Of a stretch of DNA of 64,000 nucleotides, positions 23,060 to 61,924 are shown one piece after another. The translations under genes were made by a program, and so were the position numbers. Below the pieces are notes generated by a model, which searched no databases, had not been told where the DNA came from, and saw nothing but the letters and a program-made list of their open reading frames with translations. Position 1 is the stretch's first letter, and every line of letters starts with the position of its first letter. This DNA is from an uncultured Acidobacteriaceae bacterium (GTDB lineage: Bacteria > Acidobacteriota > Terriglobia > Terriglobales > Acidobacteriaceae), in the NCBI GenBank assembly GCA_963833305.1, contig CAWHXN010000008.1:171572-235571 (forward strand), written 5' to 3'.

Positions 23060-23079
23060 TCCGCCTTTTTCCTGATCGC

Positions 23080-41731: not shown

Positions 41732-42487
41732 CTAAGTCACACGTTGTGGGATATCTAGTGGGATCGGTTCAGCCGTTGGCGGATCGGCCACCACGGTGTA
41801 AATCAAGCTTTCTTCTCGTCGCCACCATCCCCGAAAAACTTTGCCATTGTCGCAAACCGCCTGGAGCCGCGACCATCGGCTTTGATCGATTTCGAGCGGG
41901 TCCGCCGCGGATTCGCCAGCTTTCGCCCGTTCGCCCGCAGAATCAGAAAGGCTGACTGCCACGCTTCGGGTGTCGGCCCGAAGACCAACCCGCAGCGCCT
42001 TCAAAGCGCTTTCCTTTGCGCTCCACAGCAGGGTTAACAGCCAGGGTCGATCCTTTTGCGGCATTCGCAAAACCATTGCCTGCTCTTCCGCGGTGAAGTA
42101 ATCGTTAAAGAAGCCGCTGCTGCGTGGCTCGATCAATTCCAGGTCGCAACCCACTGCGGCAAGAGACGGCATAACGGCGCAGATTGCCGTCCCCGCGCAG
42201 TGGCTTAGTGAAATCGTAATGGCTGCCGCTTGCCCGGCAAGAAATACTTCCGGCGCTCCGTCCGAGGCTGGACGAATCTCGACATCAGCAAGCGCGGATG
42301 GATCAGCCGAAAGATTCATTTGGGCGGCCACAGCCCGTTTCGCTGTCCAGCGTCCCAAGCGCCAGTCACCACGCCGCTTGGGAAATCGCAAGCCGCCCAA
42401 TTGCAACACCTCAGCCGGGCTAAGCCAGTTGTTCTCCGCCGGCATATCCACAGCGGTCTGTTCCAGCCAAAAAAGGTTCACTGCCAA
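41732..42487 (-). CDS. 4'-phosphopantetheinyl transferase (Sfp-type)
   Basis: 251 aa. 'ISLSHCAGTAICAV' and 'WSAKESALKAL' (W/FxxKE(S/A)xxK) are PPTase superfamily motifs. The start (TTG/GTG) lies 4-10 nt after the carboxylase stop. Confidence 0.8.
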   Translation of the reverse strand: MAVNLFWLEQTAVDMPAENNWLSPAEVLQLGGLRFPKRRGDWRLGRWTAKRAVAAQMNLSADPSALADVEIRPASDGAPEVFLAGQAAAITISLSHCAGTAICAVMPSLAAVGCDLELIEPRSSGFFNDYFTAEEQAMVLRMPQKDRPWLLTLLWSAKESALKALRVGLRADTRSVAVSLSDSAGERAKAGESAADPLEIDQSRWSRLQAVCDNGKVFRGWWRREESLIYTVVADPPTAEPIPLDIPQRVT

Positions 42488-42491
42488 AGCA

Positions 42492-45400
42492 TCAACTCTC
42501 GCTTAGAGTCAGCACCGCGCGGCTGGCGGGCGACTTCTCGCCTTGCGGTCCAGTCTCCTTTTCGATACCACGTTCAATCGCATGAATAAGGTAAGGACGA
42601 AGCGTGGCTGGCGGAATAATGTTATGCAGAGCGCCTACCTTGAGTGCCCGATGAATGCTGTGAACGCGGTCGAACTCGTCGGCCACCTCGCCCAGTTTCT
42701 CGGAGTGCACGATGGGGAACAGTTCGTTCCAGCGAGCTTGCAGCCGCGCTTTTTCCACCCCAGCGGCTTGGGCCATCGCCTGGGTCAGCACCTGCAGCCG
42801 TTCGTCTTTGCGCGCTCTGGCGTCTACTTCGCCGGCAAAAACCACCGCTGCTGCCGGAGCGCCGCCGATCACCGACGCATACGTTCCCTCCAACGCGATG
42901 ATCTCCAGATTCTCATTCAGCACCTGCGAGAACACCACGTACGCTCCGCCGTGGTAGCGAGAGATGCCGCAGAAGACCATTGGGCCCTTGAAGTTCACTA
43001 CTGCGCGGCCGATTTCGGCGCCGTATTCCAATTGCAGTTTGCGCAGCGACTCGGGAGAGCCATCGAAACCCGACAGGTTCGCCAGGATCACCACTGGCCG
43101 GTTATTACTGGCGGCATTCAATGCGCGAGCCGCCTTCTTCGACGAGGCCGGAAACAGCGTTCCCGCTGTCCACTGGTCAGGGCCGTCCGCCGGAACAAAT
43201 CCCAGGCGAGGAACGGGATGAGACTCGATGCCCATCAAACAGACCGGGTAGCCGCCGAGATGCGCGTCCCAAACCACCACCGTCTCAGCTCCTCTCATGC
43301 CCGACCAGCGCTCCAGAGGAGAATGGTCCTGATCCACTACCGCAGACAGCACCCGGCGGATGTCGAATGGCTTCTTCCGTCCTGGGTTCGTCTCGTCCGA
43401 GAAAATATCTCCAACGCGCACGAAGCTGCTGGTGCCGTGGGCGCCGTGCGGATATGTTTGCACGTCCCGGTCAACCGGGTCGGTGGTTGCGGCCCGGCGC
43501 GGGAAACGCTCGCCCGGAATTATGTAGGTGTGGTCGTAGTGACGGAACAGGATGTGGCACGCTTCATCAATGTCGCGCGCAAAATACTGCGCCTGCCCGT
43601 TCGGTCCCATGATGCGATCGTAGCCGCCGATTCCCTGATTATCTTCCGCCGACACGCTGCCTGAGTAATCGAGCGCACGCTTGCCGGTAAGCACCATCGC
43701 GGCCGGTGGGGTCATGATAAGGATGCCGCGCGTGTGCAGCAGCATGGTGGCTTCGGAATTCCAGTAGGGCTGCGCTCCTACGTTGATGCCGTTGACCACC
43801 AGATTCACTTCGCCGCCCGCCTGCGTGAACTCGATCAAGCGGCGCAGGACCCGCGAGATCCAATCCATGTTCTCGACTCCGCTGTCCATCGAGATCTTGG
43901 CTCCGGCTGAAATCGGGAACCACTCCAGCGGCACATGCTTGGCTTCCGCTAAATCGAGGGCAGCGATGATGAGCCGGCATTCGGGTTCGGCGAGCGCACC
44001 CATGCCCTTGCTGGGATCGCCGAGTACCAGAACTCGGCTCATGCCTTCGGGATACTTGGCGGTAAAGTTGCGAATCACGCCTACGATGATGTTGGCTTTG
44101 TTCTTGCCGTAGGGACGAGCGACCGGAACCAGATGGTTTTCTGCGTCCAGATCGTATTCGAAAAAATCGCCGGTGGGGAATTCAGACCGCGTATTTTCCA
44201 GCGAGGGCGTCAGCATCTTGACGATTTCATACGGATAGATGAGCCCGTGCTGGCGCATCTTCACTACTTTTTGATCGTATTCAGCCAGCGGCTTCAGCGG
44301 TTGCTGCTGAGTCGCGGGACGCACGGTCATCAGCAAACCCGTGCTCCCGGGATTGGAAACTCGTACCAGCATGTCGCGCAGCTCGCCCGTCTTGGGGTGA
44401 GGAATGCGAGCCCGCAATACCACCTGCTCCAACCCCAAGCCGTCAGTCTCCGGGGCCAAACGGCACGCGATGGCGTGCAGTTGATCGGCATCGATCGTGA
44501 GTGCAGGCCAGACATTCAGCAGGATACGATTCCAGTAAAGCCGCTTGTGCGCGGGCCGCTTCATTTGGAATTGCCGGATGGCGGCCAGGGTCTCCGCAAA
44601 CATGCGCTCCAGATGCGGCAGTTGCACGACGTGGCCCCCCTGGTCGCGCACCGGCGTCAGGTCGCGAACTTCGGCACACGCAAACAGCCGCTCGTCCTTG
44701 GGGTTTTCCCGAGCTACGCCGTGCAGCAGGTAAACGTCTTCGGCCGACGGCAAACGCTCGATATTGAAATTCTGTAGGCGCCACAGATGCAGACGGTTCG
44801 CCATCATCGGATGGATGCCGCGATAGAACTTGTCCTCTTCGTACTTGCCGTCTTTCAGAACGTAGGTGAAATGCTGAACGCCGCTCGTTCCTTCGGCCCG
44901 GACAGAACTGCCCGCCGCCAGCACAACCCGCCGCACCGAGCCGGGCAAACCCATCTGATTCAGTATGTCCTGCCCTTCGCGCTGCGCGCTTTCCTGATCG
45001 CTTAAAGCGCCCGGATGCCACACATAAAAGTCGACCGCAACCTCACGGTCCGCCGGAACTTCGCGAATCAAAGGAACCAGTTGCTGTGCCGTTTTAGCGA
45101 GCTCGGAATACTCCGCGTACGTGGTGAAAAGATGGATGCGTTTGCCTTCGTGTTCGTATTCCGCCGAGACGTAGCGCTGTCCGTCTAACGCCCGGCAGCA
45201 CAGATCGGTGAGCGTTAGCGGGCGATAGTGGCGTCGAGTGAGGATTTCTAACATCAATTGCCGCAAGCCGAGATTAGCGCTCGCGAACTTGCTCGAGAAC
45301 AGGCCAACCAGCGGTTGCGGACACTCGATCAGCGCCTTGACCCGGTCGTCGCGATCCGCCGCTTTCGGATTCTCTGCCAGATACGCCAGGTGATCTTCCA

Positions 45401-48113
45401 TCTCCGAGTAGACAATTCTTCGCGCCTGTTCAAACAAGGGCTGATCGAAGCAGCGATAACGCACTTCACGAGCCAGGTCGCTCACCGTAGGCGAGCTTCC
45501 GCGCGTAATAGGGATCAGCAGATCGAGCAGGGTGCGGAAAGATTCGTCGGCATCCGGGATCAGTGCTTCGCCGCGAGGTAGTCGGCGTTGCAGCACGCCC
45601 AGAATCGGCGTGATCTGCCGCTCCACTCGTTGATGCGACTTGTAAATCCACAGCAAAGTCTCTTCCAGGACGGGAGAAGGATCCAGCGTCTTGATGCCAT
45701 AGTGGGCAAGCGCACGGCGCAATGCGTCGACAAATGCCGGCGGAAGCCCCTCGCCCTGCGTCTGGATCATGCGCAAATAGGTAAACAAGTAGGCTTCCGA
45801 ACTGGGCGCTTCGCCGCCTGAAGGATCGTTGATTCCAGGTTTGCGGCGGAACAGAGAACATATGTCCACGAAGATGTTGAGGATCTCGTCTTCCTGACGC
45901 CGCAACTCTTCGGTATCTGAGGCGAGTTCACGGAACTGGCCCCACTGCGCAAACACTCGCGCCGTACGGACGGGATCAACGTCAAAGCCCAGCATCAACT
46001 GCCGCAACTCGTCCAGGTTCTGTCTCCAGGCCGATTGACTGGTGCTGTCTTCGCTCGAGGTCAGCGATGTACTGAAGACCACCCTTTCCATCGCTTCCGT
46101 CGTTTGTTCATCCGCCGTCGGTTCGATTTGCAGCAGCGGAGCGCCGATGTCGACCTGAACATTGGGGATGGTCATGATCTGCCGCACTTTGCCGGCGAAG
46201 GGAGCCACCACCTGCGTCTCCATCTTCATGGCTTCCAGCACTAGCAGCCGATCGCCGGCCGCAACCGTGTCGCCCGGCTTGACGGCAATCGAGACCACCA
46301 CCGCCGGAGCCGGCGCGTGAATCACGCCGCCATCGTCGCGTTCGATGCGATGCGAAACGCCGTCAACCTCAATGCGGTAACTCAGCCCCTGCACCACCGA
46401 AACTACGTGCGAGCGCTGACCAAACGTCGTGAGCCAATACTCAAATGGTCCGAGATGATGAAGATGAGCATCGATGCGCGAGCCGTCCACCTCAATGCGA
46501 TAGCGCTCGCGTCCCAGGCAATAGGTCTTCATTGCGTAAGACTGGCCGCGGTAACGCAGCTTCACCGTGCGACCTGCCTCACTTCTTACATGCGGGCGTC
46601 CGCGCACGGCTGAGGTGTAGAACCGAGCCTGCTCCACCGCCAGGTCGGCGCAGTAAACTTCAATCGCCGCCTGCACTAGCGCCACATCGGCGAAACGCCG
46701 CGAGAGATGTTCTCCGTTTGCGGCCAGCCGATCCAGCCATTCGACATCGACTTGACCATGCTGCACCTCGGGGCGGTTTAACAGCTCCAGCAGGAACGCT
46801 TTGTTCGTCGCTCCGCCCTTAATCACTACAACGCTCTCGCGCAGGACGCGTTGCAGCCGCGACAACGCTTCTTTGCGGCTCTGCCCAAACGCAATGATCT
46901 TGGCTACCATGGAGTCGAACTCCGGCGGCACCGAATCTCCCACCGACACTCCCGTATCAATGCGTATGCCGGGGCCGGTGGCAATCATGAAGCGCTCAAT
47001 GGCGCCCGGCCCGGGAGCAAACCCATTCTCCGGATCTTCGGCATTCAGCCGCACTTCGATAGCGTGGCCGATGGTGCGAGGCTGTGCTGCCTCCAGGCGG
47101 CCGCCGCGCGCGATGTGAATTTGCAGTTTGACCAGGTCCAGCCGCGTCGTACATTCCGTCACCGGATGTTCCACCTGCAAGCGGGTATTCATTTCCATGA
47201 ACACAAAACGCTGGCTGGCCGGCTGATACAGAAACTCGACCGTGCCCGCATTGTGATAGCCCGCTGCCTGGCTCAGGCGTACGGCCGCTTCCCGCAATAA
47301 CTGGTCCACTTCCAGCGAGAGCCCGGGCGATGGCGCTTCTTCCATCACTTTCTGATGACGCCGCTGCACCGTGCAATCACGAACTCCCGCGGCCCATGTC
47401 ATGCCGTAGTGATCGGCGATCACCTGCACCTCGACGTGCCGTGCGCCGCCGTCGATTAACTTCTCCATGAATACGGTCGCGTCACCGAACGCTTTCGCTG
47501 CCTCGGCGCGGGCGCCCGCAAACGCGTTCGCCAGTTCATCGTCAGCATTTACCCGGCGGATGCCATGACCTCCGCCTCCCGCCGTCGCTTTGATCAGCAA
47601 CGGGTAGCCTAGCCGCTCGGCATGCTGTTGAGCGTCCTCTAGCGTGTCGACCGGCCCACCGCTCCAGGGAGCAATCGGAATGTGGGTCTGCTCAGCTAAA
47701 CGCTTGGACGAAATCTTGTCGCCCAGCAGCCGCATCACCTCCGGGTCAGGGCCAATGAACACGATGCCCATCTCGCGGCACAGTTCCGCAAAATCCGCGT
47801 GCTCGGCCACAAAGCCCCATCCCACCCATACGGCTTCGGCGCGTACCGCCGTCAGGGCCCCTCTGAGGCCTTCGTAATTCACATAGCTGCTCTTGGGCTG
47901 ATGAGTTTTGGGGTCCAGGAACGTGCTGGCGCCCAGGCACCAGGCCTCGTCGGCTTCGCGCACAAACATGGCATTGCGATCAGGTTCGGTGAAGAGTGCG
48001 ATGGTGCGTAACGAAGTACCGTGTTCGTGATTGAACTCGCGTGCCGCGTGGATGAAGCGCATCGCAGCTTCACCGCGATTGACGATCACCACGCGCTGAA
48101 ATTCGGATTGCAT
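42492..48113 (-). CDS. single-chain multidomain biotin-dependent acyl-CoA carboxylase (BC - BT/BCCP - central region - CT)
   Basis: Intact 1,873-aa ORF. Biotin carboxylase ATP-grasp ('VIVNRGEAAMRFIHAARE', 'MEMNTRLQVEHPVTE'). Biotinyl domain 'LVLEAMKMETQVVAPFAGKV' (Lys codon 46224-46226). C-terminal two-lobed carboxyltransferase ('LVVNGINVGAQPYWNSEATM', 'ILANLSGFDGSPESLR', 'GGAYVVFS'). Confidence 0.9.
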   Translation of the reverse strand: MQSEFQRVVIVNRGEAAMRFIHAAREFNHEHGTSLRTIALFTEPDRNAMFVREADEAWCLGASTFLDPKTHQPKSSYVNYEGLRGALTAVRAEAVWVGWGFVAEHADFAELCREMGIVFIGPDPEVMRLLGDKISSKRLAEQTHIPIAPWSGGPVDTLEDAQQHAERLGYPLLIKATAGGGGHGIRRVNADDELANAFAGARAEAAKAFGDATVFMEKLIDGGARHVEVQVIADHYGMTWAAGVRDCTVQRRHQKVMEEAPSPGLSLEVDQLLREAAVRLSQAAGYHNAGTVEFLYQPASQRFVFMEMNTRLQVEHPVTECTTRLDLVKLQIHIARGGRLEAAQPRTIGHAIEVRLNAEDPENGFAPGPGAIERFMIATGPGIRIDTGVSVGDSVPPEFDSMVAKIIAFGQSRKEALSRLQRVLRESVVVIKGGATNKAFLLELLNRPEVQHGQVDVEWLDRLAANGEHLSRRFADVALVQAAIEVYCADLAVEQARFYTSAVRGRPHVRSEAGRTVKLRYRGQSYAMKTYCLGRERYRIEVDGSRIDAHLHHLGPFEYWLTTFGQRSHVVSVVQGLSYRIEVDGVSHRIERDDGGVIHAPAPAVVVSIAVKPGDTVAAGDRLLVLEAMKMETQVVAPFAGKVRQIMTIPNVQVDIGAPLLQIEPTADEQTTEAMERVVFSTSLTSSEDSTSQSAWRQNLDELRQLMLGFDVDPVRTARVFAQWGQFRELASDTEELRRQEDEILNIFVDICSLFRRKPGINDPSGGEAPSSEAYLFTYLRMIQTQGEGLPPAFVDALRRALAHYGIKTLDPSPVLEETLLWIYKSHQRVERQITPILGVLQRRLPRGEALIPDADESFRTLLDLLIPITRGSSPTVSDLAREVRYRCFDQPLFEQARRIVYSEMEDHLAYLAENPKAADRDDRVKALIECPQPLVGLFSSKFASANLGLRQLMLEILTRRHYRPLTLTDLCCRALDGQRYVSAEYEHEGKRIHLFTTYAEYSELAKTAQQLVPLIREVPADREVAVDFYVWHPGALSDQESAQREGQDILNQMGLPGSVRRVVLAAGSSVRAEGTSGVQHFTYVLKDGKYEEDKFYRGIHPMMANRLHLWRLQNFNIERLPSAEDVYLLHGVARENPKDERLFACAEVRDLTPVRDQGGHVVQLPHLERMFAETLAAIRQFQMKRPAHKRLYWNRILLNVWPALTIDADQLHAIACRLAPETDGLGLEQVVLRARIPHPKTGELRDMLVRVSNPGSTGLLMTVRPATQQQPLKPLAEYDQKVVKMRQHGLIYPYEIVKMLTPSLENTRSEFPTGDFFEYDLDAENHLVPVARPYGKNKANIIVGVIRNFTAKYPEGMSRVLVLGDPSKGMGALAEPECRLIIAALDLAEAKHVPLEWFPISAGAKISMDSGVENMDWISRVLRRLIEFTQAGGEVNLVVNGINVGAQPYWNSEATMLLHTRGILIMTPPAAMVLTGKRALDYSGSVSAEDNQGIGGYDRIMGPNGQAQYFARDIDEACHILFRHYDHTYIIPGERFPRRAATTDPVDRDVQTYPHGAHGTSSFVRVGDIFSDETNPGRKKPFDIRRVLSAVVDQDHSPLERWSGMRGAETVVVWDAHLGGYPVCLMGIESHPVPRLGFVPADGPDQWTAGTLFPASSKKAARALNAASNNRPVVILANLSGFDGSPESLRKLQLEYGAEIGRAVVNFKGPMVFCGISRYHGGAYVVFSQVLNENLEIIALEGTYASVIGGAPAAAVVFAGEVDARARKDERLQVLTQAMAQAAGVEKARLQARWNELFPIVHSEKLGEVADEFDRVHSIHRALKVGALHNIIPPATLRPYLIHAIERGIEKETGPQGEKSPASRAVLTLSES

Positions 48114-48157
48114 AATTCCCCCAAGAACGGAGACCTTTAGGGTTAGCTGCTAGATGG

Positions 48158-51100
48158 TTATGCCAGGACAGCCCGCATCGCTCGCAGCGGCTCGACGTCG
48201 ATACGATTGGGCAAAGCCACGGTGCGATAGCCGCTAACCTGCAGGTAGCGGTTTCCGGCGTTATCCACAACCTCCGCGTCGAAACTTTCCTGCCCTTCGT
48301 CCGGCGTGACGATGGCATAGAGAGGTCCCTCGGCCAATTGCGGTGAGCGCAACCAGCTGACCTGCTCGACATGAAGCGGCAAGCCCATCCGGTTGTGTAC
48401 CCCCATTTCCCAGAGACCGGCTGTTTGGAAGCAAAGCTCGATCAGCCGCGGCGCCATCAGGGTTGGCAGTTCAGAAGGCTGATGATTGCCGGGTAAGTTC
48501 TTTGTCAACTCACCCACCATCCTCTTTCCATCCCACCAGGCGCGCTCTACCACCTGGTACGCCGGGCCGTGAAAGTAAATGCGATAGATCTCGGCTGCGT
48601 CAATGATGGACTCCGCAGACAAACGCAGCGGCGTCAGGGGTGAGACCTCCGTCGCCCGCTTCGTCAGGCGCACGCGTGCCACGAAGTGCGTCGTCTCTTG
48701 CGGCTCAGGATGGTTCGGCAGGGTTCGCCGTCCGATCAAGCGGCAATCTGCGATCAGATCATCCCCTTGCGGATAAAAGGCAGCTTGAATCGTTATCGTC
48801 CGCGGCTCGTCTTTGTAGAACTTGAAGGGAGCCAGGAAGTTCACCTCGGCGATTGCTCCTACACGCCAGCCTGGATGCACGCAGAGTGCCGCCTCAGCAA
48901 ACGCCTCAATTCCCATTACACCCGGTAGCACCGGAGTTCCATCGATGCGATGGTCGTAGAGGAATGGCTGTGCCGTCGGATCCAGCGTCGTCTCCATGGT
49001 CAAGCCGCTGTTAATGCCCATTCCGGTGATCTTACCGACCATCGGACCTTGCGCCGCCACCCGCTCGCGTGACGCGTTCAGGGCGTCGGTGTCCAGCCCG
49101 CCGGTGGGATCCCATTCGTTCAACAGAATGCCGAGGCGATTGCCGATCACGATTTCACCGCAGGTTGCTCCCTCGGTGAGCTCGCGACGGATCAAAGGAA
49201 TACCAGCTTCAGGCGGCAGCATGTCGATCCCTGCCGCTTCCATCATCTTGGGAATCGAGCCGCGCGTGGCCATGCCGATGCCGCCCCACGCCGTCCAGTC
49301 AATGACAATGCCGCGTGTGGCCGGACGGGTGGTACGGAAGCTCGAGGTGATCTTGCACAGCAGGTCGTTGGCGGCGCTGTAATCGGTTTGACCGCCGTTA
49401 CCAAAACGACCAGCAATGGAACTGAACGCCACCGTCGCCCTCAGAGGCATGTTTCCTATGGCGTGCAGAAGGTTGAACCAGCCATCACTCTTGACGTCGA
49501 ACACCAGATCGAATTCCCGCGGATCTTTGTCAGGCAGGAAGTGGCTCCGCTCGATGCCTGCAGCGTGCAGCAACACATCGATGCGGCCGCTGCGCTGGCG
49601 CACCTGATCGATGACCTTAGTTATGGCGTCTCCGTCGGCAAGGTTGACACTGAAGTAGTGGGCCGTCCCGCCCGCCGCTCGCACGGCATCAATTGCACTC
49701 TGCGCCGCCTGCGCCCGCTCCAGTCCGGCCAGTTCCTTTTCCACCAGCGCCGGCGTGGCTCGTTCACCGCGCGCCTGTATGCGGGCAAACAGGTCGCGCT
49801 TCAGCCCGTCTTTGTCGCTGACGAATCGCTTTAGATCGGGGTTGTTCGGATCGGGCTCGGGCACCAGGTCGAGCAGGTAGAACGTGCCTCCCGAAGCCGT
49901 TGCCAAATCTGCCGTGATGGCCGACACGATGCTTCCCGCCGCACCCGTTACCACAAACACGCTATCTTCATTCAGGGTGATTCCCGCGTGACCATCGGCT
50001 GCAGGCTGTTCTTGCAGGCTGATCGTCCAACGCTCGCCAGCTCTGTATCCAATCTCAAGTGCACCGGGATCGCGCAGCGTCTCCTCGACTAAAGCTTCTG
50101 CGACTTCCGACGGCGAACGCCCAGCTTCAAAATCGACGGCTTTGACGAAAGCGTCGGTCCGCTCGCGCTTGTAAGTCTTTGTGAAGCCGACGACTCCTCC
50201 GCCCAGCGGAGCGTTGGCGCCAGTTGCATTGTATCCATGCTGACCGCCAAGCCGGGTGGCCGACACCAGGAATGTACCCGGTGCAGCAATCTGCTCGAAC
50301 AGAACCCGCATAGTGGTATAGAACAACTTCACGCGTGTACGTAACGCTTCGCGCCAGCTTGCCAGATTCATGTTGTCCAGGCTGCCTTCGTCGTCCAATC
50401 CAGGCAGCCAGTAGACACCTTGCACCGAGCCGGCAGCGAGCCAGGTGTTCAGGCGAGCGGTCAGAGTGTCCGCATCCGGCGCGCCCTCGATCAGCAACGC
50501 TTCCACACCCAACTTGCGCAGCTGTTCTGTCAAAGCAACGGCTGCGCCATTCTTGTCCGGCATGATAACCACTCGACTGCCAGCCTGCAGCTTTACGCCC
50601 GTTGGCTTGCAGATGTTGAGCGGGGGCCGCAAGTTTGGCACCGGCACGCGACGGGGAATGCGGTTGGTCGCGTCGAAGTTAAGCACCGGCTTGCGCTCCC
50701 GCTTTGGCGCCGATGGAGGCGAAGGCGGCGGGGTGGTCGGGTCGGTGCCTTGCGGCGGTTCAGGCGGGATTGGCGTGACTGCAGCTTTCGCCCGTTTCTG
50801 TTGGGCAAATTGAATCACGTGGCCCAGGGTCGGAAAATCCCGTAACTTGATACTTTCATCGCGCGGGATGTTATAAGCCGCCCGCACCGAAGCGAACATT
50901 TCTGCCTGCTTGACGGTATCGATGCCAAGATCGGCCTCCAGATCCAGGTCCAGATCCAGCATGTCTTTGGGATAGCCAGTCTTCTCCGCAACGATGTCCA
51001 TCACCTTCTGCTTGACGGTCTCATCGTCGTCGGCAGGAACCGCGCCTGGCGAAGCCACGACGGGAGTCGACGCTGAGGCAGGCACAGGCGAAGTTGTGGA

Positions 51101-54100
51101 AGGCTGACCGGCAGTTGTGGGCGCCACAGTTTCAGGCGCCGCAGATGCGGCCGCAAGGTCCGGCCGATTCTCGTACACGAAACGGATCACGTGCGCCAGC
51201 GTCGGATAGTCGCGCAGTTTGCGGTTTTCATCACGCGGGATACCGTAGATCTCGCGAATCGCCGCGAACAGTTCCGCCTGTTTGACCGTATCGACGCCGA
51301 GGTCGGCCTCGAGATCGAGATCCAGGTCGAGCATGTCTTGCGGATAACCGGTCTTCTCCACCACCAAGGCGAGCAGCCGTTCCTTGACGTCATAGACCAT
51401 AGTGGCAACAGAGTTCGCCACCGCTGACGCGGTTGCCGGCTGCGTCTCCGGTATAGGTGTGGCAGGCGCGGTCGTAGCCGGAGCAATAGCTCCCCCAGCC
51501 AGGTCAGGCCGATTCTCGTACACGAACCGGATCACGTGCGCCAAGGTTGGATAGTCGCGCAGTTTGCGGTTTTCATCACGCGGGATGCCGTAGATCTCGC
51601 GAATCGCCGCGAACAGTTCCGCCTGTTTTACGGTATCGACACCGAGGTCGGCCTCGAGATCGAGATCCAGATCCAGCATGTCTTGCGGATAGCCAGTCTT
51701 CTCCACCACTAAGGCGAGCAGCCGCTCCTTGACGTCATCAACCGACGCCCTGGCGGCGATAGCCACCGGAGCCGGTGCGGGAGGTTTTACTTCGGGCGTT
51801 GATGCGGATGCTGCGCTTGCGGCCGTTGAAGGCGTAGCCGCGGGTGACAGATCCGGCCGATTTTCGTGCACGAATCTGATCACGTGCGCCAAGGTCGGAT
51901 AGTCGCGCAGTTTGCGATTTTCATCGCGCGGGATGCCGTAGATCTCGCGAATCGCGGCGAACAGTTCTGCCTGCTTGACCGTGTCAACCCCAAGATCGGC
52001 TTCCAGATCGAGATCCAGATCCAGCATGTCTTGCGGATACCCGGTCTTCTCCACCACCAAGGCGAGCAGGCGCTCCTTGACGTCATCAACCGCAGCCTTG
52101 GCGGCGGTCGCGACGGGAGCTGGCGTGGACGGTTTTGCTTCGGGCGATGATGCGGATGCTGCGCTTGCGGCCGTTGAAGGCGTAGTCGCAGCTGACAGGT
52201 CGGGCCGATTCTCGTACACGAACCGGATCACGTGCGCCAAGGTTGGATAATCGCGCAGTTTGCGGTTCTCATCGCGCGGGATGCCGTAGATCTCACGAAT
52301 GGCCGCAAACAATTCCGCCTGCTTGACCGTGTCAACACCAAGATCGGCTTCCAGATCGAGATCAAGATCCAGCATGTCTTCCGGATAACCAGTCTTCTCC
52401 ACCACTAAGCCGAGCAGCCGCTCCTTGACGTCATCAACCGCAGCCTTGGCGGCGATAGCCACCGGAGCCGGTGCGGGAGGTTTTACTTCGGGCGTTGATG
52501 CGGGTGCTGCGCTTGCTTCAGTTGAAGACTTAGCTGTGGGCGACAGATCCGGCCGATTCTCGTACACGAATCGGATCACGTGCGCCAAGGTCGGATAGTC
52601 GCGCAGTTTGCGGTTTTCGTCGCGCGGGATGCCGTAGATCTCGCGAATCGCCGCAAACAATTCCGCCTGCTTGACCGTATCGACGCCAAGGTCTGCCTCC
52701 AGATCGAGCTCCAGATCCAGCATGTCCTGCGGATAGCCGGTCTTCTCGACGACGAGGGCGAGTAGCCGTTCCTTTACGGAATCCGACGCTTCGCTTGCTT
52801 GTTTCGTGGTCAACGGTCTTGGCTGGGGCGCGAGCGTGGCTGCTGTGATCTCACCCTTTCCGTTTGACTTGCCTTCTTTGACTGGCGTCACCGGTACCGG
52901 CATCGTCACCGCGACCGGCACGGCCGCTGCCGCTTGGGACTTCGTTGTGGGGGCAGTCGTAACAGCAACCGGCCCGGCCGACGCCACTTGGGGCTTCGGA
53001 GTCGGAGCAGGCAGCGCCACTGCAACTTGCGTTGGCGCTGGCGCCTTCGGAGTTGCCGTTGCCGGTTCGCCGCGACTCCGCCTTGGTCGCAGCAATCTGC
53101 GCTGCCAATCCCTGATCGCGCACCCGCAGCGTGCGATGAACCACTTCGAGCTCGGCAGCCGGACGTCCGGCCATCCGGCTTAGCCAGGCTTCCCAGGCAG
53201 ACTGATCGGCGATGCGGTAGGCGTAGCCCAGATTCTTCGGGCTGGGACGCAGACCAGTCTTCGTCGGCACCCAGCGCAACAGAATCATGCTGATCTGCGA
53301 ACCGAAGCCGGCGCCCAGATGCAAAGCATATTGGATGGGATAAGGAACCGCCCTTCGACAGGTTCAGCACGCCCAACTCCGGATCGACTTCCTTGAAGTT
53401 GGCAACCGGCGGCACCAATCCCGTTTCCAGGGTTTTCACCGCCAGAACATCTTCGATGCCTGTGGCCATGGCGTGACCAGTCATGCCTTTGGTATTGGCT
53501 ATTACGATTTGGTCGGCGCCGTCGCCGAAGACGCGGCGCAGCGCGTGAATCTCGGCCGAAGCGCTGCCGCCTCTTGCGGGTGTGTAAGTTTCGTGGGAAA
53601 CGAAAACCATCTTCGGCGCTATCTCATTACGGGCAACGCCGCTGCGGGTTTCCGCTCCAGCCACCAAGTCTTCCATCACCCCGCCGATATGCTGCACATC
53701 GAGGCGAGTGCCGTGAAACGCACTGTTGGCGGTCACCGCGCTCAATACTTCGCAGATAGGCTGGATGCCCCGTTCGCGCGCGGCTTCGGCGCTCTCGACT
53801 ACCAGCGCCGCTGCGCCCATGCCCATGATCAGGCCATGCCGGCGGCGATCGAAAGGAATAGCAGCTTCTTCAACCCGCTCGTCGGTCGCGGCCGCTCCGC
53901 TGGCCAGGAAGCCGGCGCCAAACCATCCGATCATGTTGTCGGAGGTGACGTCGTCCGCTGTGATGATGATGACGCGGCGGCACCGCCCCGCCCGGATCCA
54001 GTCCTGGGCCAGCCCAACCGCATGTGCGCCGCTGGCGCATGCCGCATTGATCTGCGTGTTGGGACCGCGAGCGCCGATCAACTCGGCGAACTGCGAATGT

Positions 54101-57100
54101 CCCATCGACAGCACCCGCAGCAGGAAGCGCCGGTCAAAGACGTATGGCTCCTTGTCGAGCGTGCTGCGCAACTCGTCGATGCGCCGATCTACTTCCTCCC
54201 CCAGCACGGAATGCCCGTTGGCGGCGCGGCCCCGCCAGCCTTCCAACATTGTCAGCTCTTCGCGTCGGGCATGGTCGACGTGATATGCCGAAATGAGTTC
54301 CGCAAAGGAGTCGTAGCCGGGAAAGGCAGAGCCGAAAATTACGCCCGTGTCGTCACGCATAGCATCCGGCAATCCCCAGCGATCCGGCAACTGCGTGCCT
54401 TTGCTGGTGGTTTTGTACCGCATGACCAGCGGAATGCCGGCGTCACGCAGAGCGTCGATTCCGGCGGCGATAGCCAGACGGGTCACCCGGTCGAGGGCCG
54501 CCAGATGTTCCGAGGGAACTCCGAATTCACTTTCCAGATCGAAGGCGCCGCCGCGGCCGGCCAGCTTAATGACATCGGCGACATCGTTAATCGACTCGAA
54601 CGTGGCCTCTCCCTGTTCGCTCTTGACCAGGCGCCGAATGTGCTTTTCCACCATGGCATTGCGGAACTGCTTAGGGATGGCGCTGATAAATTGATCACCG
54701 CGCAAGATGCGCTCAATGTTGCCATCGTCGAAAATATGCTCGGTTCCCGGTAGGCCTAACGACGCTCCGGTGATGACCACCGGGGCGTAGCCGGCGACCG
54801 GGCTATCGTCGCGATGAAGCTGCCAGCCCTTGCGCTCCAGAGTCTCGGCCAGCAACCGACCAAGCTCGTTGTACGAATTACCATTCGCGGGCTCAGGCGG
54901 CGCCGTTACAGCAGTGGGAGCTGCTGCGGCCAGCGGAGTTGCTTTGGCATAGTTTACAGCTGCCGAAATTGTCGCCTGTGCAATCGCAGGTTTCGCCGGA
55001 ATCTCGCGTGAGACTTCAGCCTGCCCACGGCCCAGACCTGCCGCGTACAGCGCGCATAGGGCTTGATTGAAGGACGGAATATCTCCGACCTTGGGATGGT
55101 TGGTGAACAGCGAAATCACGTCGCCTCGTTCGCCCAGCACTTCCTCGGCAAATCCCTGCAACGCCTTCTTCGGCCCGACTTCGATGAAGACACGAGCTCC
55201 GGCGTTGTACAAGGTGTTCAGGCCTTTCACAAACTGCACCGGCGAGGCTACTTGCAAAGCCAGCAGATCCAGGATCTGCGGAACCACGTCAGGTCCGGTG
55301 GGATAAAACTCGCCATTCACGTTGGCGACGATTGGAATCTTCGGGGATTGAATATCCAGGGTAGCCAGCATCTCGCGCAGTGGTTGGCTGGCGGGAGCCA
55401 CAATCGAGGTGTGGAAAGCGTGGCTCACCGGCAACGGAACGACGTTGAAGCCGGCTTGCAGGAACATCTCCATCGCCTGCTCAACGGCTTTGCTGGCGCC
55501 TCCAATGACCGACTGTTGCCCGCTGTTTACGTTGGCGATCACCGCATACCCGTCAACGGTCTTCAGGATTTGCTCGACTTCCGCCAAGGGCGCAAATACC
55601 GCGGCCATGCGGCCGGTATCCTCCACCGCAACCTTGGTCATGCCGCGGCCACGGGCGCTAACGGCGGCTAACGCATCGTCGAAGGTCAGCGACCCTGATG
55701 CCACCAGGGCGCCGTATTCGCCCAGGCTATGTCCCATGGTCATGTCTGGCTTTACCCCATACGCTGCCAAAAGCTGGGTGAGCGCCAAGTCAATCGTCAA
55801 CACGGTCGGTTGCGTGATCTCGGTCTGGCGCAGATCTTCTTCAGCTTTTGCCACCGCTTCTTCGTCGGTTTGATCCACGAAGATGAACTCCGTCAGTGGC
55901 TTGCCCAGCATCGGAGTCATGATGCGATCCGCTTCCGTAAAAATGTCGGCCACGATCGGTTCGGCGGCGCGCAGCGGCGCGATCATATTCACGTACTGTG
56001 AGCCTTGCCCGGTATACAGAAACGCGACTTTGGGAGCCGGGCCGCGTCCGCGAAAAATTCCCTGCGGACGCAGTGCTTTCCAGATCGGTGCCTGATTGGC
56101 TTTCAGCGCCTTCAATGCCTTGGTTGCTTTGTCAGCCAGCTCGGCCGCATCGGCATAGTCGATTGCCAGGCGTTCAGGCGCTTTCAGGTCGGCCTCGGCT
56201 GGGGCAGCCGGTGCAGGAGCACGACCCGCTAGTGCTTCTTTCTGGATCGCAACCAGACGCTCGATAATGGCAGCGTCGGAGTCGGCGCCGATTACCAGCG
56301 CGCCCCGCAACGGTGCTTTGCACGATTGTGCAGATGCCGGAGCAGATGCCGCCTCAGCACTTGCCACTAAGCTCGGGATTACTGCCGCCGGTACCTCACC
56401 CACGGCTACCGAATGCTTGCCGTTTCCGTTCAGCCTGCCGGGAATGTACTCCTCAAGAACAGCGTGGAAGTTCGTACCTCCGAATCCAAATGCGCTCACC
56501 GCGGCTCGCCGCGGGACATCAGCAGGAACAGTCCATTCCTTCAGTTTGGTGTTGACATACAGCGGGGAGTGAGCAAAGTCGATGTCGGGACTGGGATGCT
56601 CGCAATGCAGGCTCGGAGGCAATACCTTGTCGCGAAGGGCCAACGCAACTTTCAGCATTCCGGCGGCGCCGGCCGCGCCCTTCAGGTGACCAAAATTCGA
56701 TTTGACGGAGCCCAAAGCAATCGAGCCTTGGGGAAGATGAAAACTGCTCAACACGTCAACCAGGCTTTGCGCCTCTACCACGTCGCCGACGCGAGTCGAG
56801 GTGCCGTGGCCTTCAAACATAGTCGCAGTCGCCGGCGATATGCCGGCATTGTCCCAGGCTCGCTGGATGCAAAACCGCTGGCCAGTGGGATTGGGCGCGG
56901 TGATGCCCTTACCCTTGCCGTCACTCGATCCGCCCATGCCGCGCAGCACGGCATAAATTTTGTCGCTGTCGCGCTCCGCATCGGCCAGGCGCTTCAACAG
57001 AAAGATGGCCGCGCCTTCGCCCATCACAAAGCCGTCAGCGCCCTCAGCATAAGGGCGAGTACCGGTGGCCGAGAGGGCGCCAATCTTGCAGAACTTTATG

Positions 57101-57858
57101 AAGCTTGAGGCTCCCATGTTGCGGTCAATGCCGCCTACAACGGCCACGTCAAAATCGTTCTCGATCAGTCCTTCCGAAGCCGCACTGAAAGCCGCCATCG
57201 CCGAAGCACAAGCCGCGTCTACCACGTAGTTGGGACCGTGAAAGTTGTAAATATTCGCGATGCGACCGGCGATGCAGTTGGCCAGTTCGCCCGGCATGGT
57301 GTCTTCCGTAACTGCGGGGACCAGCAGCCCGATGCGTTGATGCAATTCTTCCGTTATTTTGCGACGTGTGTTCTCGGGCAACGCTGCGAAGCTGGCGCCT
57401 TCCGCCAGTTCGTGGGCGTACTCCGGGAAGTACAGGCGCAATGCGGTGAAGTAGTGTTTTTCGCCGGCCATGGCATTGCCCAGAATCACCGCCGTGCGGT
57501 CCGTATTTAGCGGCTTATTCGGATAGCCGTAATCTTCCAGGGCCTCGCGGGTGCAGGCGATCGCCCACTTCTGGGCATCATCCATGGCGTCGACTACGCG
57601 CGGTGGAACAGCGATGTGCCACTTCATCGGCTCCCACGGGAATTCGCGCACCCAACCACCGATCGTCGAGTACGTCTTGTCGGGAGCGCTGTGATCGGGA
57701 TCGTAATAAAACGCAGAGTTCCAGCGGTCGGTTGGAACTTCGCTGACACTGTAACGGCTGTTCTTAATGTTTTCCCAGAAAGCCGGTACGTTCGGAGCGT
57801 CGGGCAGGACAGCGCCCACCCCCACAATCGCAATCGCGCGATGAGCAGAATCTTCCAT
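48158..57858 (-). CDS. pfa-like iterative type I fatty-acid/polyketide megasynthase: KS - AT - KS' - 6 x carrier domain - KR - PS-type DH (two frame breaks as given)
   Basis: Track ORFs 52906..57867 and 48158..53095, plus a 280-nt bridge in the third frame ('[24 protein letters not shown]...') read as one protein of about 3,230 aa. Domain map (nt): KS 56452-57837 (DAACAS, HGTST, SNFGH); AT 55153-56034 (GHSLGE, HAFH); KS' about 53250-54786 (NAACASG, SHETYT, GMTGHAM); carriers 50783-52783; KR 49136-50578 (VVTGAAGSIV, YSAAN); DH 48161-49042 (LYDHRIDGTPVLPG). The likely start is ATG 57858, with AAGGAAG 8 nt upstream. Confidence 0.85.
50783..52783 (-). repeat. six tandem carrier-protein (ACP-like) coding repeats, period about 345 bp
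   Basis: Units at about 52544-52783, 52196-52435, 51848-52087, 51500-51739, 51155-51394 and 50783-51022. Each is '[78 protein letters not shown]' (unit 6 is diverged), separated by Ala/Pro/Ser/Thr linkers. Confidence 0.95.
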
Positions 57859-58383
57859 GGCTGACACTTCCTTTTGCGGATGTTTCGAACCTAGACGAAT
57901 AGGCGGCTATCGGACGCAATGGGCAGCAGCATCGAGGTGGGGTCTTATCCCTTCCTCTCCACACCGGAGGAAGGCGGCACTCACCAGGCCTGTTAATTCG
58001 GGGGTCGCCCGAGAGCATCTCTATCCTGACAGGGGCGCGGCGGACTTGTCTGTGACATGATGTCCTGCAGTTTGTGACGTATGTTGCTCGGGTTGGTGAT
58101 ATCGGGCGCAATCGAAGCCGGGTTTATGTGTGTCAACATATAAATCAAGCTGCTCACTGCAACTCTTTCGGCGGGGCCAATCAGGGAAATCGTGTTGCCA
58201 CACGTTATTATTAAATCAATATTGCATTCCGCAATGAGAGAATGCGGTAACGCGCGTTGTCACACATAAGTTACGGCGATGTTAAATCGAACGTTGCCGG
58301 GGAGTCAGGCCATTGCTTTTGCCAACCGGCGAAAAAGGCATTCGGTCCGTGAGGAAGCGGATCGAATGCCTTCTCTCGATCGA

Positions 58384-60069
58384 CTAAACCAGGACCGGCT
58401 GTTCGGCTTCCTTCTTCACCCGGCTGTAGATCACGTCAGCGACGTAATCCATGTCGGCAAGTTGGCCCGCTTGCGCCTGCAGTACCGCGGCTAATCCCGA
58501 ACTTGCTTCCAGCGCCGCGATATCAGACCCGCTCACGCCATCGGCTCCGATGACCCAGCGCAATCCGTCTTGCGCCACTTTGAGGGCGGCATCGCGAGCG
58601 AAGATGCGTGCCAGTGCAGCCAGTGCGGTCGCATCGAAGCGCGCGTGGGCTTTCTCGTTCAGCTTTCCTTCGGCCGCCAGCGCCGCGCGCCGAGCCAGGC
58701 TGCCGGCGCACTCTGCGTAAGCAATTAACTCGCCCAGGCGAAGCAGGATATGCTGGAAACGGGTCAGGCGTGCAACCCGCGCTTTTTCCATCACCTCGGC
58801 CAGGGCGTGCGCGGCCAGGGCGGCCGTGCCGGCGCCGACGTTCGGATGCTTGGCGTGCAGCGCTTCGAGCTCGCGGGCCTGGTCGTGATAGTACTGACCA
58901 CGCGTCTTCAGGTGCAGCTGCCAGCGGTCACGACTGATCGTCATCTCCATGATCTCGGAGGTGCCTTCGTAGATCCTGGTGATGCGAACGTCGCGGCTGA
59001 TCTTCTCTACCATGTATTCGTGCGTGTAGCCATACCCGCCTAACGCCTGAATACTGTCGTCAGCGGCCTTATCGCCTGCTTCCGTCGCCATGTACTTGGC
59101 GATGGCGCCCTCGGTGTTCAGAGTGCCTTCCCCGCCAGCGTCGATGCCAAGAGCGGTTTCTTCGATGTAGGAGCGGGCTGCTTCCAGGCGAACCACGTTA
59201 GGAACGATCAGCTTATGCGTGTAGCCTTGCTTTTCCGACAAGGGCGCGCCGGCCTGAATACGCTTGGTGGAATAAAGAATGGCGCGATCAAGAGCGCTCC
59301 ATCCGGCTCCCAGACCGAACGCGGCAACCATCACGCGCGTGTAACCGAAGACCAACTGCGCCTGCACCAAGCCCTGGCCTTCTACGCCGCCGACCAGGCG
59401 GTCGGCGTCCACGTACACATCGTTGAGAGCCAGCGCTGCCGTGTTGCTCAGACGAATGCCATGCTTGTCCTCCGGCTTATCGTGAGCAAAGCCTTTAGTC
59501 CCCGCATCTACAATGAACCAGGTCGGACCCGCGGGGGTGTTGGCCAGGATGGTGTAATGCTCAGCAATGCCCCCGTTGCTGATCCACTGCTTGCTGCCAT
59601 TGATCTTGTAGCCGACAATCTTGCCGTTCTCGATGACGCGGTCGGCGGTGGTCTTCAGCGCTCCCAGATCGCTGCCGGCTTCGGGCTCGGTTGCGCCGTA
59701 GGCGAACAGAACGCCCTCTTCGGCGATCTTCCCCAACCACTTCTTCTTCTGCTCCTGGGTGGCGCCGAACGTTATGGGATCGCTCCCCAGGAAAGTGGCA
59801 AACAAAGAGGTGGCGACGCCCAGGTCAATCCGCGCCATTTGTTCGCAGATGAGATAGACGTCAAGTGTGCTTCCGCCCATGCCGCCGTACTCCTCCGGAA
59901 TGAACAGGAGCTGGGTACCGAGTTTATCCGGGTTGCTCATGTACCGAACGATCTCTACTGGGCATTCATCGCGCTCATCTAACGCGATCAGCTCTTCGTC
60001 CGGCAGGCTCTTCTTGGCGAAATCCCGGAGCGATTTCAAACTTAGTTGCAGGGTTTTCTTGGTAAGCAT
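58384..60069 (-). CDS. acyl-CoA dehydrogenase with C-terminal extension
   Basis: 561 aa. '[11 protein letters not shown]' and '[31 protein letters not shown]' (catalytic Glu region), plus an extra helical tail of about 170 aa. Confidence 0.9.
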
Positions 60070-60085
60070 TGACGATGCCTTTCTC

Positions 60086-61069
60086 TTAGACCGAAACGCC
60101 TTTGGCTTCGCGGATCTTGTTGGTCAGCTCCGGCAAAAATTCCAGAATGTCGGCGACAATTCCAATGTCTGCCACCTGAAAAATTGGAGCTTTTGGATTC
60201 TTGTTGATGGCGACGATGAAGGGATTGCCTTTAAGGCCGGCCAGATGTTGGAACGATCCACTCATGCCGCAAGCCATATAGATCTTCGGCTTGACGGTCT
60301 GTCCCGAGGAGCCCACCTGACGGGATTTCGGCAACCACTTGGCGTCGACCACTGGCCGCGAACAGCTCACCGCCGCACCCATGATTTCAGCCAGCTCTTC
60401 GGCGATGGGTATGTTGTCCTTTTCCTGGATGCCTCGTCCCACGGAAACCAGCACTGCCTGTTTGGTGATGTCGACATCGCCGGTCTCGGCAACCACGGTT
60501 TCCAGATAACGGCGTTTCGCGGACAGCGCCCCAACCTCGGCGGACTTGTCGACCACGGCCCCGCTAAGAGGAGGGCCTTCCAGCGGCTTGAAAGAGCCGG
60601 GACGGGTTGTAAGCACCGCGCCCGAGGAGAGATCGCAGCGCACGTGAGCGCTAACCTGTCCGCCGAATTCCTGGCGAACCAGCTTCAGCGAAGTACCATC
60701 CACTCCGTCGATGGCAACGACGTCAGAAACAAAAGCCGAATTGAGCTTGATCGAAAGACCCGGCGCCAAATCGATTCCGAAGTGAGAGTGGGGAACCAGC
60801 ACGATGCTGTCGCGCGGGATGACTTTGACCAGGGCTTGGCGAACCAATTCAGCATTGGGATAGGCGATCGCCTGATTGGCGACTTTCCATACCTCGGCGT
60901 ACGAAGAACGGAGGCTTTCGCAGACCGTGTCGAGTTCGGGACCCCATCCGGCTACGACGGCAATCGGGGAGGCAGCAGCGTCGATCTTTCTTGCGGCAGC
61001 TGCCAGTTCGGCGGCCGAGTCGTCGGCCACGCCGGCCTTGTGCACAATGTAGGCAAAGATGCGAGCCAT
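60086..61069 (-). CDS. etfA: electron transfer flavoprotein alpha subunit
   Basis: 327 aa. C-terminal FAD-binding '[30 protein letters not shown]...[23 protein letters not shown]'. Confidence 0.9.
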
Positions 61070-61866: not shown

Positions 61867-61924
61867 TCTCCCGGTTGCTTTTCGTTTCCACTGTCCACGT
61901 TCGTCGAACCTCCCGTCGCAGGGA

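Follow-up and report, generated by a model that had tools for sequence, protein, structure and literature searches.

Gene content of the locus

We analyzed a 64,000-nucleotide stretch (here called the window) of contig CAWHXN010000008.1 from the assembly GCA_963833305.1 of an uncultured Acidobacteriaceae bacterium. The window harbors minus-strand genes for a PfaA-family iterative synthase, a single-chain biotin-dependent carboxylase, and a 4'-phosphopantetheinyl transferase (PPTase), which together form a Type R secondary-lipid synthase cluster. An earlier note on this DNA had treated these three genes as self-contained. The conserved unit is larger than this triad and consists of reductase, synthase, carboxylase, and PPTase, with an acyl-CoA dehydrogenase (ACAD) encoded directly upstream as the candidate reductase. 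In the order of transcription, the features are as follows.

61925..63992, minus strand: membrane iron-sulfur (Fe-S)/CCG oxidoreductase of the electron transfer flavoprotein (ETF):quinone-oxidoreductase type (Pfam CCG and Fer4 domains, tblastn)
61069..61866, minus strand: EtfB, ETF beta subunit, 265 aa (Pfam ETF)
60086..61069, minus strand: EtfA, ETF alpha subunit, 327 aa (Pfam ETF and ETF_alpha, PDB matches)
58384..60069, minus strand: extended ACAD, 561 aa (three Pfam ACAD domains)
57868..58383, minus strand: AT-rich intergenic region, ~520 nt (sequence read directly)
48158..57858, minus strand: PfaA-family iterative synthase, ~3,233 aa after indel repair (Pfam, TIGR02813, frame analysis)
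42492..48113, minus strand: single-chain biotin-dependent carboxylase, 1873 aa (Pfam)
41732..42487, minus strand: Sfp-type PPTase, 251 aa (Pfam ACPS, PF01648)

In the window, the synthase is represented by two overlapping minus-strand open reading frames (ORFs) at 48158-53095 and 52906-57867. Gaps of 44 nt (48114-48157) between synthase and carboxylase and of 4 nt (42488-42491) between carboxylase and PPTase confirm the close packing described before, and the Pfam matches agree with the domain map then proposed: ketosynthase (KS), acyltransferase (AT), a second KS (KS'), six carriers, ketoreductase (KR), and dehydratase (DH), followed by a fused carboxylase and an Sfp-type PPTase. Four to five same-strand genes encoding the ACAD, EtfA, EtfB, and the Fe-S/CCG protein (58384-63992) directly precede the synthase. 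Since the genes 3' of the PPTase are convergent and unrelated, the end of the cluster was set at 41732. A scan of the window against Rfam gave zero matches.

Domain organization and type of the synthase

Pfam searches placed the KS (PF00109/PF02801) at residues 10-476 and the AT (PF00698) at residues 616-909, with another KS match near residues 1270-1310, while the downstream ORF contains six PP-binding stretches, a KR (PF08659), and a PS-DH/PKS_DH_N domain. No enoyl reductase (ER) domain was present in the Pfam map of the polypeptide. The approximate positions of the domains, all on the minus strand, are given below.

56440-57840: KS
55141-56022: AT, with GHSLG and HAFH motifs
about 53187-54735: KS', with Cys-His-His intact
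50792-52768: six carrier domains, all with Thr at the attachment site
about 49166-50611: KR
48161-49168: PS-type DH, with HxxxGxxxxP motif

After repair of the indels described below, the synthase comprises 3235 aa, in good agreement with the ~3,230 aa estimated earlier; the ORF on a conspecific contig (L085; ENA ERZ25039470 contig_52417), whose ACAD is identical to that of the window, encodes 3233 aa. The repaired protein scored 1117 bits against the PfaA model TIGR02813 of NCBIfam, which is above the curated cut-off of 1010.1 bits (a whole-protein score) and substantiates the suspected kinship with PfaA. Model positions 8-897 align to residues 11-926 of the synthase, and with respect to the model the KS' segment is inserted.

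An alignment of 28 diverse full-length homologs revealed that the Cys/His/His residues of the KS, the GHSLG motif and HAFH histidine of the AT, and the HxxxGxxxxP histidine of the DH are invariant. GHSLG and HAFH are motifs of malonyl-type ATs. Equally invariant are C1277, H1425, K1460, and H1465 of KS', found in the motifs NAACASG (Cys), SHETYTP (His), and KGMTGH (Lys/His), which align in Thermus FabF with the catalytic Cys, the His of HGTST, and the paired Lys and His. KS', which had already been noticed as an extra KS-like domain inside the PfaA-like protein, is by its residues a catalytic-type ketosynthase and not a cysteine-less chain-length factor (CLF), because its Cys-His-His triad is complete. 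As far as we could find, such a catalytic-type KS' is unreported.

The core of this cluster was catalogued by Shulse and Allen in 2011 as Type R (PLoS One 6:e20146, PMC3098273), comprising a pfaA homolog of the organization KS-MAT-CLF-ACP(3-6)-KR and a downstream PPTase gene. The type was reported in "Candidatus Koribacter versatilis" strain Ellin345, "Candidatus Solibacter usitatus," Elusimicrobium minutum, and Roseiflexus, and in K. versatilis an acetyl-CoA carboxylase gene lies between the pfaA homolog and the PPTase gene (PMC3098273). The window likewise contains a single pfaA homolog with KS, MAT, second KS, ACP(3-6), and KR in this order and a DH in addition, as well as a downstream PPTase of the P1b' (hShxH) kind, here ISLSH, with the carboxylase in between. 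The suggestion that the system was undescribed was therefore not borne out, and even the carboxylase gene was already on record for Koribacter.

The N-terminal 1598 aa of the synthase matched only Acidobacteriota proteins, at 70 to 98% identity. Full-length relatives of ~2,700 aa possess the same domains, and relatives also exist in Elusimicrobiota and Chloroflexota. A search with the KS' region yielded 660 clusters (50%-identity representatives) below 1e-30, and the order KS-AT-KS'-carrier-KR-DH persisted down to ~35% identity, with N-terminal extensions and extra carriers in some proteins. A scan of one genome per species returned at least 600 candidate stretches, and the best 80 loci were analyzed. 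These belong to Acidobacteriota, Gemmatimonadota, Actinomycetota, Myxococcota and other former deltaproteobacteria, Chloroflexota, Rhodothermales, Binatia, Elusimicrobiota, Thermoplasmata, and one Heimdallarchaeon. The archaeal loci with homologs of the bacterial-type synthase are L062, L076, and L083 (Thermoplasmata and "Candidatus Heimdallarchaeum aukensis"). In L062, the PPTase is apparently fused to the synthase in an ORF of 3704 aa; in L076, the synthase is split into ORFs of 1506 and 2625 aa, and its neighbors are genes for a carboxyltransferase on the upstream side and for an alpha/beta hydrolase on the downstream side.

A conserved ACAD upstream of the synthase

The ACAD consists of three Pfam domains (N, M, and C) with the catalytic Glu in the motif RIYEGTSEI. 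Its core is MCAD/Bcd-like according to a PDB search, and it carries a helical C-terminal extension of ~180 aa, conceivably VLCAD-like, that had no match in Pfam or among PDB sequences. The best NCBIfam matches of both the ACAD and EtfA were acryloyl-CoA reductase components, and EtfB matched the generic ETF-beta model first and an acryloyl-CoA reductase component second, in each case below the cut-off. The PDB neighbors of EtfA are ambiguous as to bifurcating or non-bifurcating function, and EtfB leans toward the latter, its nearest solved relative being the non-bifurcating ETF beta of M. methylotrophus. The Fe-S/CCG protein has about six N-terminal transmembrane helices, two CxxCxxCxxxCP (4Fe-4S) motifs, and two CCG domains, an architecture that it shares with membrane ETF:quinone oxidoreductases. 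In tblastn, its intact 693-aa homolog from locus L002 aligned to 63992-62991 and 62977-61955 in two frames.

The set of ACAD, EtfA, EtfB, and Fe-S genes also precedes the synthase in the loci of two distant homologs, with or without a carboxylase. Among the 72 species loci with enough flanking sequence, tblastn detected an ACAD gene on the same strand within 400 nt upstream of the synthase in 51, and in about 57 if matches split by frameshifts are included. These loci belong to Acidobacteriota, Gemmatimonadota, Actinomycetota, Myxococcota, Chloroflexota, Rhodothermales, and Binatia; the spacing is often only 2-100 nt, and the ACADs share 61-84% identity. In several distant loci (e.g., L017 and L025) the ACAD is better conserved than its own synthase, and over many Terriglobales assemblies it is 85-100% identical (P0271-P0390). 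ETF and Fe-S genes adjoin in Terriglobia and, in other orientations, in seven actinomycete loci.

Some loci without an ACAD carry another reductase instead. A PfaD-family ER (TIGR02814, 659 bits) adjoins the PPTase in three Chloroflexota loci (L032, L046, and L075), all without an ACAD, and PfaD matches were found in no other locus of the best 80. In the Elusimicrobiota locus L041, which also lacks an ACAD, a FabI-like reductase gene lies 6 nt upstream of the synthase. Three unrelated reductase types are thus found in the cluster, and they largely exclude one another. Because PfaD and FabI-like reductases replace the ACAD in other lineages, enoyl reduction is likely part of the pathway, and the ACAD/ETF module would be the trans-acting enoyl reductase of the synthase in most lineages, including that of the window.

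These results modify the earlier picture of a synthase lacking the usual partners of polyunsaturated fatty acid (PUFA) synthases. The absence of PfaD was confirmed by tblastn in the 64-kb window, where no PfaD-family ER was matched, but a conserved ACAD, here with ETF and Fe-S genes, stands directly upstream. PfaC, PfaB, and thioesterase genes were not seen among the annotated flanking ORFs, the whole window not having been searched for them. As to a PfaC-like gene, tblastn found no second KS gene elsewhere in the window, and none was seen in the annotated flanks of related loci. The expectation that the chemistry halts at enoyl or hydroxy intermediates is probably wrong, because the conserved upstream ACAD is the best candidate for a trans-acting enoyl reductase. 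Our literature searches found no ACAD-type ER partners of PUFA-like synthases, and as far as we could find the conserved ACAD partnership is unreported.

Threonine at the attachment site of the carriers

All six carriers of the window synthase contain the motif LEADLG[VI]DTVKQAE, with Thr at the position of the canonical attachment Ser. In an alignment with solved acyl carrier proteins (ACPs), this Thr takes the place of the Ser that is modified there. The carriers match PF00550 at the level of the fold and differ from the PROSITE pattern PS00012, (D/E)xGxDS(L/I), in its attachment Ser. In the 80 loci (L005-L084), Thr was present in 235 of 238 carrier domains, and both Ser carriers counted lie in the Heimdallarchaeon locus L076. 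Among the representative proteins, P0166 is the only one in which all carriers have Ser. We found no report of Thr-linked phosphopantetheine or of Thr carriers in the literature. In the pathway proposed below, the Thr carriers would be phosphopantetheinylated.

At the DNA level, the carriers form a tandem array of a 348-nt repeat at 51159-52778 (4.7 copies, 85% matches). Six carriers are present in the window, compared to two to four in relatives. The array is evidently hard to assemble, as many database homologs are broken off there.

Carboxylase and PPTase

The carboxylase contains the Pfam domains Biotin_carb_N, CPSase_L_D2 (ATP-grasp), Biotin_carb_C, Biotin_lipoyl, ACC_central, and Carboxyl_trans. 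In a PDB search, its N-terminal 664 aa resembled the alpha subunits of MCC and PCC rather than AccC, and yeast and human acetyl-CoA carboxylase (ACC) matched in three stretches. We presume that it serves as a dedicated malonyl-CoA supply. The PPTase shows the usual catalytic motifs, with GCDLE, WSAKESALK, and the ISLSH form of P1b'.

Conservation of the triad of synthase, carboxylase, and PPTase, a check proposed in the earlier note, was examined in the 52 loci with enough downstream flank. In 34 of them, the gene directly after the synthase is a fused carboxylase. Loci of Chloroflexota, Elusimicrobiota, and archaea instead encode the carboxyltransferase and/or the biotin carboxylase in separate genes, and the PPTase adjoins the synthase or the carboxylase in 50 of the 52.

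Intergenic region and further neighbors

Reading the sequence directly after the ACAD stop codon revealed a terminator-like hairpin, GGCATTCG...CGAATGCC, followed by TTTTTC, which is not among the sites listed by a scan. The region at 57868-58383 also contains the inverted repeats TTATGTGTGACA / TGTTGACACACATAA and CGTGTTGCCACACG, which are possibly operator sites for a regulator. Homologous loci have 2-300 nt at the junction of ACAD and synthase, most of them less than 150 nt, compared to ~520 nt in the window. Because of the terminator-like hairpin and the AT-rich ~520 nt that contain the inverted repeats, the synthase, carboxylase, and PPTase genes may have their own regulated promoter in this genome.

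In one Terriglobia subclade (L002, L009-L011, L047, L052, L055, and L061), genes for an AdhE-like aldehyde/alcohol dehydrogenase, a STAS protein, and a wax-ester synthase (WS/DGAT) are located upstream of the cluster, and a GMC oxidoreductase gene, sometimes together with an esterase gene, is located downstream. WS/DGAT and AdhE genes also adjoin the ACAD in one actinomycete locus (L069). These WS/DGAT and AdhE neighbors hint at a possible neutral-lipid (wax-ester) fate of the product. The AdhE-like, STAS, WS/DGAT, and GMC genes are absent beside the conspecific contig L085.

Proposed pathway and alternative readings

We propose that the cluster encodes a complete reducing iterative synthase for which the ACAD, ETF, and Fe-S proteins supply enoyl reduction, and we assign this reading a probability of about 0.55. 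The fused carboxylase would form malonyl-CoA, and the malonyl-specific AT would load malonyl onto the six tandem carriers, primed by the PPTase of the cluster. KS and KS', both catalytically intact by their residues, would elongate the chain, and KR and PS-type DH would generate a trans-2-enoyl thioester. This would be reduced in trans by the extended ACAD, with electrons flowing from the (mena)quinol pool via the Fe-S/CCG oxidoreductase and EtfAB to the ACAD. The predicted product is a long acyl chain, possibly partly hydroxylated and largely saturated, the latter because there is no FabA-type isomerizing DH; it would then be passed to a putative acyltransferase. Observed are the genes with their domains and active-site residues, the synteny across phyla, and the exchange of one ER type for another; the action of the ACAD on an enoyl intermediate of the synthase, the direction of electron flow, the product, and the phosphopantetheinylation of the Thr carriers are what we infer here.

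Reductive members of the ACAD family that work with an ETF are the clostridial Bcd/EtfAB, caffeyl-CoA reductase, and acryloyl-CoA reductase. In Ascaris, the 2-methyl-branched enoyl-CoA reductase is fed by rhodoquinol through an ETF:rhodoquinone oxidoreductase. A flow of electrons from quinol to the enoyl group would be thermodynamically plausible with menaquinol.

Several points weigh against this proposal. ACAD, ETF, and Fe-S oxidoreductase are the standard electron path of beta-oxidation, a non-bifurcating ETF is usually oxidative, and running the path reductively would call for a low-potential quinol. No ER gene of any type was seen nearby in about ten loci (Elusimicrobiota, archaea, one Frankiaceae, one Desulfomonilaceae, and one Anaerolineae). 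The hairpin and the ~520 nt between ACAD and synthase mean that co-transcription may be lacking here. The AF2 model of the ACAD is poor (pLDDT 51); the alignment behind it was shallow (at least 84% identity). No release enzyme was found in the window, where the absence of a thioesterase was judged from annotated flanking ORFs and not by a whole-window search. To our knowledge, there is no precedent for phosphopantetheinylation of Thr. Finally, our literature searches retrieved no later paper that gives a Type R product or biochemical or genetic data on any member.

The ACAD might also be coupled to the synthase and run oxidatively, desaturating a carrier- or CoA-bound acyl chain, be it starter, intermediate, or product, and passing electrons through ETF and Fe-S protein to quinone, with the housekeeping FabI or FabK as reductase during elongation. 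This would suit an EtfB that is closest to non-bifurcating ETF and an Fe-S/CCG protein with the architecture of ETF:quinone oxidoreductases, which are normally electron acceptors. Desaturation of carrier-bound substrates is moreover known in the ACAD family, and a prolyl-ACP dehydrogenase was among the PDB matches. However, the DH already yields a trans-2-enoyl group, and a trans-2 dehydrogenase would therefore be redundant; furthermore, true reductases (PfaD and FabI-like) take the place of the ACAD in other lineages. On balance we regard oxidative operation as unlikely.

The model of the earlier note, in which the synthase manages without enoyl reduction and its released product is of the polyene, hydroxy, or enoyl type, would make the ACAD, ETF, and Fe-S genes chance neighbors from beta-oxidation. 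It is consistent with the missing ER domain in the polypeptide, with the hairpin and long gap that part the ACAD from the synthase in the window, and with the Elusimicrobiota and archaeal loci in which no ER gene is nearby; enediyne-type KS-AT-ACP-KR-DH synthases, moreover, make polyenes. Chance proximity, however, fits poorly with an adjacent same-strand ACAD in 51 of 72 species loci from at least seven phyla, often 2-100 nt away, and the PfaD-family ER in three ACAD-less loci and the FabI-like enzyme in another are hard to explain without enoyl reduction, which makes this model quite improbable.

A third possibility is that the carboxylase acts on a long acyl-CoA and that one KS catalyzes a Pks13-like head-to-head Claisen condensation, so that a branched lipid resembling mycolic acids or a beta-keto lipid would result. 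Two catalytically intact KS domains, the nearly constant presence of a dedicated acyl-CoA carboxylase, and its MCC/PCC alpha-like rather than AccC-like N-terminal half could be taken in this sense. In contrast, the AT has invariant GHSLG and HAFH motifs of the malonyl type, the tandem carriers and KR-DH indicate iterative elongation, and the score against the Pks13 profile was 405 with a cut-off of 2100. In addition, no FAAL or acyl-AMP ligase was found in the window, and no thioesterase was seen in the annotated flanking ORFs. We therefore consider a Pks13-like function very unlikely.

We also considered a precursor of iso-diabolic acid and branched glycerol dialkyl glycerol tetraether (brGDGT) lipids as a general explanation and rejected it, since the cluster is equally present in phyla that are not known as makers of such lipids. 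Literature searches on hglE-KS in Acidobacteria and on links between iso-diabolic acid, PKS, and ETF returned nothing relevant.

Integrity of the locus

Three-frame translation showed that the reading frame of the synthase shifts from 0 to 1 near 53346, within the last part of KS', and from 1 to 2 near 53070, in an Ala/Pro linker. For comparison we used contig L085, which shares 99.36% identity with the window over 15.6 kb and in which the synthase is called as a single ORF of 3233 aa, with 3158 codons present in the locus and stop-free. Compared to L085, the window lacks 1 nt at each of two positions, 53068/53067, and contains one additional T at 53346 and another at 62988, the latter of which splits the Fe-S gene into two ORFs. 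Other genes of the window are affected as well. The N and C domains of G6PD lie in different overlapping ORFs (32473-34426, plus strand), a cytochrome b/cytochrome c gene set is split between frames (21081-23762, minus strand), and a GH63-like glucosidase gene of ~900 aa (38278-40977, plus strand) runs through at least five frames with at least four shifts. Several homologs on multi-megabase contigs are frameshifted at other positions.

Because the synthase of L085 is uninterrupted and the window has split housekeeping genes as well, we conclude that the frameshifts are assembly errors or very recent events and not decay, a concern that the earlier note had raised. That the cluster is a decaying pseudogene locus, as two frame changes in the synthase and one in the Fe-S gene might suggest, is hardly credible and was rejected, since the intact allele of L085 differs by single-base indels, the split G6PD, cytochrome b, and GH63-like genes are typical of indel-prone long-read assembly, the 5.6-kb carboxylase gene is intact, and the repaired synthase keeps every invariant catalytic residue.

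Implications

Taken together, the cluster may represent a distinct and widespread class of type I synthases that combines phosphopantetheine attached to Thr by a co-evolved PPTase with quinol-fed enoyl reduction by an ACAD, and that makes an abundant, so far unrecognized lipid of soil Acidobacteriota and other organisms. We put this combined view forward only tentatively. If it is true, the class would occur in hundreds of species of about ten bacterial phyla and some archaea, both traits would be without described precedent, and lipid synthesis would be tied directly to the redox state of the membrane. An ACAD acting as the reductase would be a fourth kind of enoyl reductase in fatty acid and polyketide assembly after FabI/SDR, MDR, and FabK/PfaD. 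Functional Thr carriers would extend PPTase chemistry and would be relevant to the engineering of carrier proteins.

Acidobacteriota are among the most abundant soil bacteria, and the 22-kb cluster is highly conserved there; related clusters of this type, catalogued fifteen years ago, range from Actinomycetota to Asgard archaea. The model that our analysis yields can be tested: a complete reducing synthase would obtain malonyl-CoA from a carboxylase of its own and would rely on a reductase linked to the respiratory chain. The ACAD partnership, the catalytic KS', and the Thr carriers make the family a good target for experiments.

Comparison with known systems

Type R as published shares the core of the window cluster and occurs in the same phylum, and the ACAD matches bear the name "Candidatus Korobacteraceae." Not mentioned for Type R are a catalytic KS' in place of the CLF, the C-terminal PS-DH, the upstream ACAD (with or without ETF and Fe-S genes), and the Thr carriers.

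The canonical PUFA synthase PfaABCDE of Shewanella, Photobacterium, and Moritella shares with the window cluster the PfaA-family backbone, a dedicated PPTase, and, if the ACAD has the proposed role, an ER acting in trans. Its carriers are likewise arranged in tandem, and their flanking sequence is the same, which bears out the likeness to PfaA carriers pointed out earlier, but the attachment residue is Ser there and Thr in the window. The canonical system has PfaC (KS-CLF and two FabA-type DH domains), PfaB, and PfaD, all of which the window cluster is without, whereas the latter has an extra catalytic KS inside its PfaA-like protein and a clustered carboxylase. The ER candidate is the ACAD/ETF module in the window and the FMN enzyme PfaD in the canonical system. 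Since FabA-type DH domains are missing, the product of the window cluster is not predicted to contain methylene-interrupted cis double bonds.

Enediyne synthases (PKSE) consist of KS, AT, a single ACP, KR, and DH with a PPTase fused to the C terminus. The window synthase departs from this organization in its six tandem carriers, its extra KS', and the separate PPTase gene. The carboxylase combines BC, BCCP, ACC_central, and CT in one polypeptide like eukaryote-type single-chain ACC. It is shorter (1873 aa versus ~2200-2400 aa), its BC-BCCP part more closely resembles the MCC/PCC alpha subunits of bacteria and mitochondria, and, unlike that of eukaryote-type ACC, its gene sits inside a lipid-synthase operon.

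The reductive ACAD/ETF systems (Bcd/EtfAB, CarCDE, acryloyl-CoA reductase, and the Ascaris enzyme) likewise combine an ACAD fold and catalytic Glu with EtfAB. In Ascaris, electrons come from a low-potential quinol via a membrane oxidoreductase, as we propose for the module in the window. Compared to these systems, the window ACAD has an additional C-terminal domain of ~180 aa and its ETF looks non-bifurcating, the quinone-linked partner is an Fe-S/CCG protein and not a classical ETF-QO, and the substrate that we propose is an enoyl thioester that is either bound to the synthase or very long.

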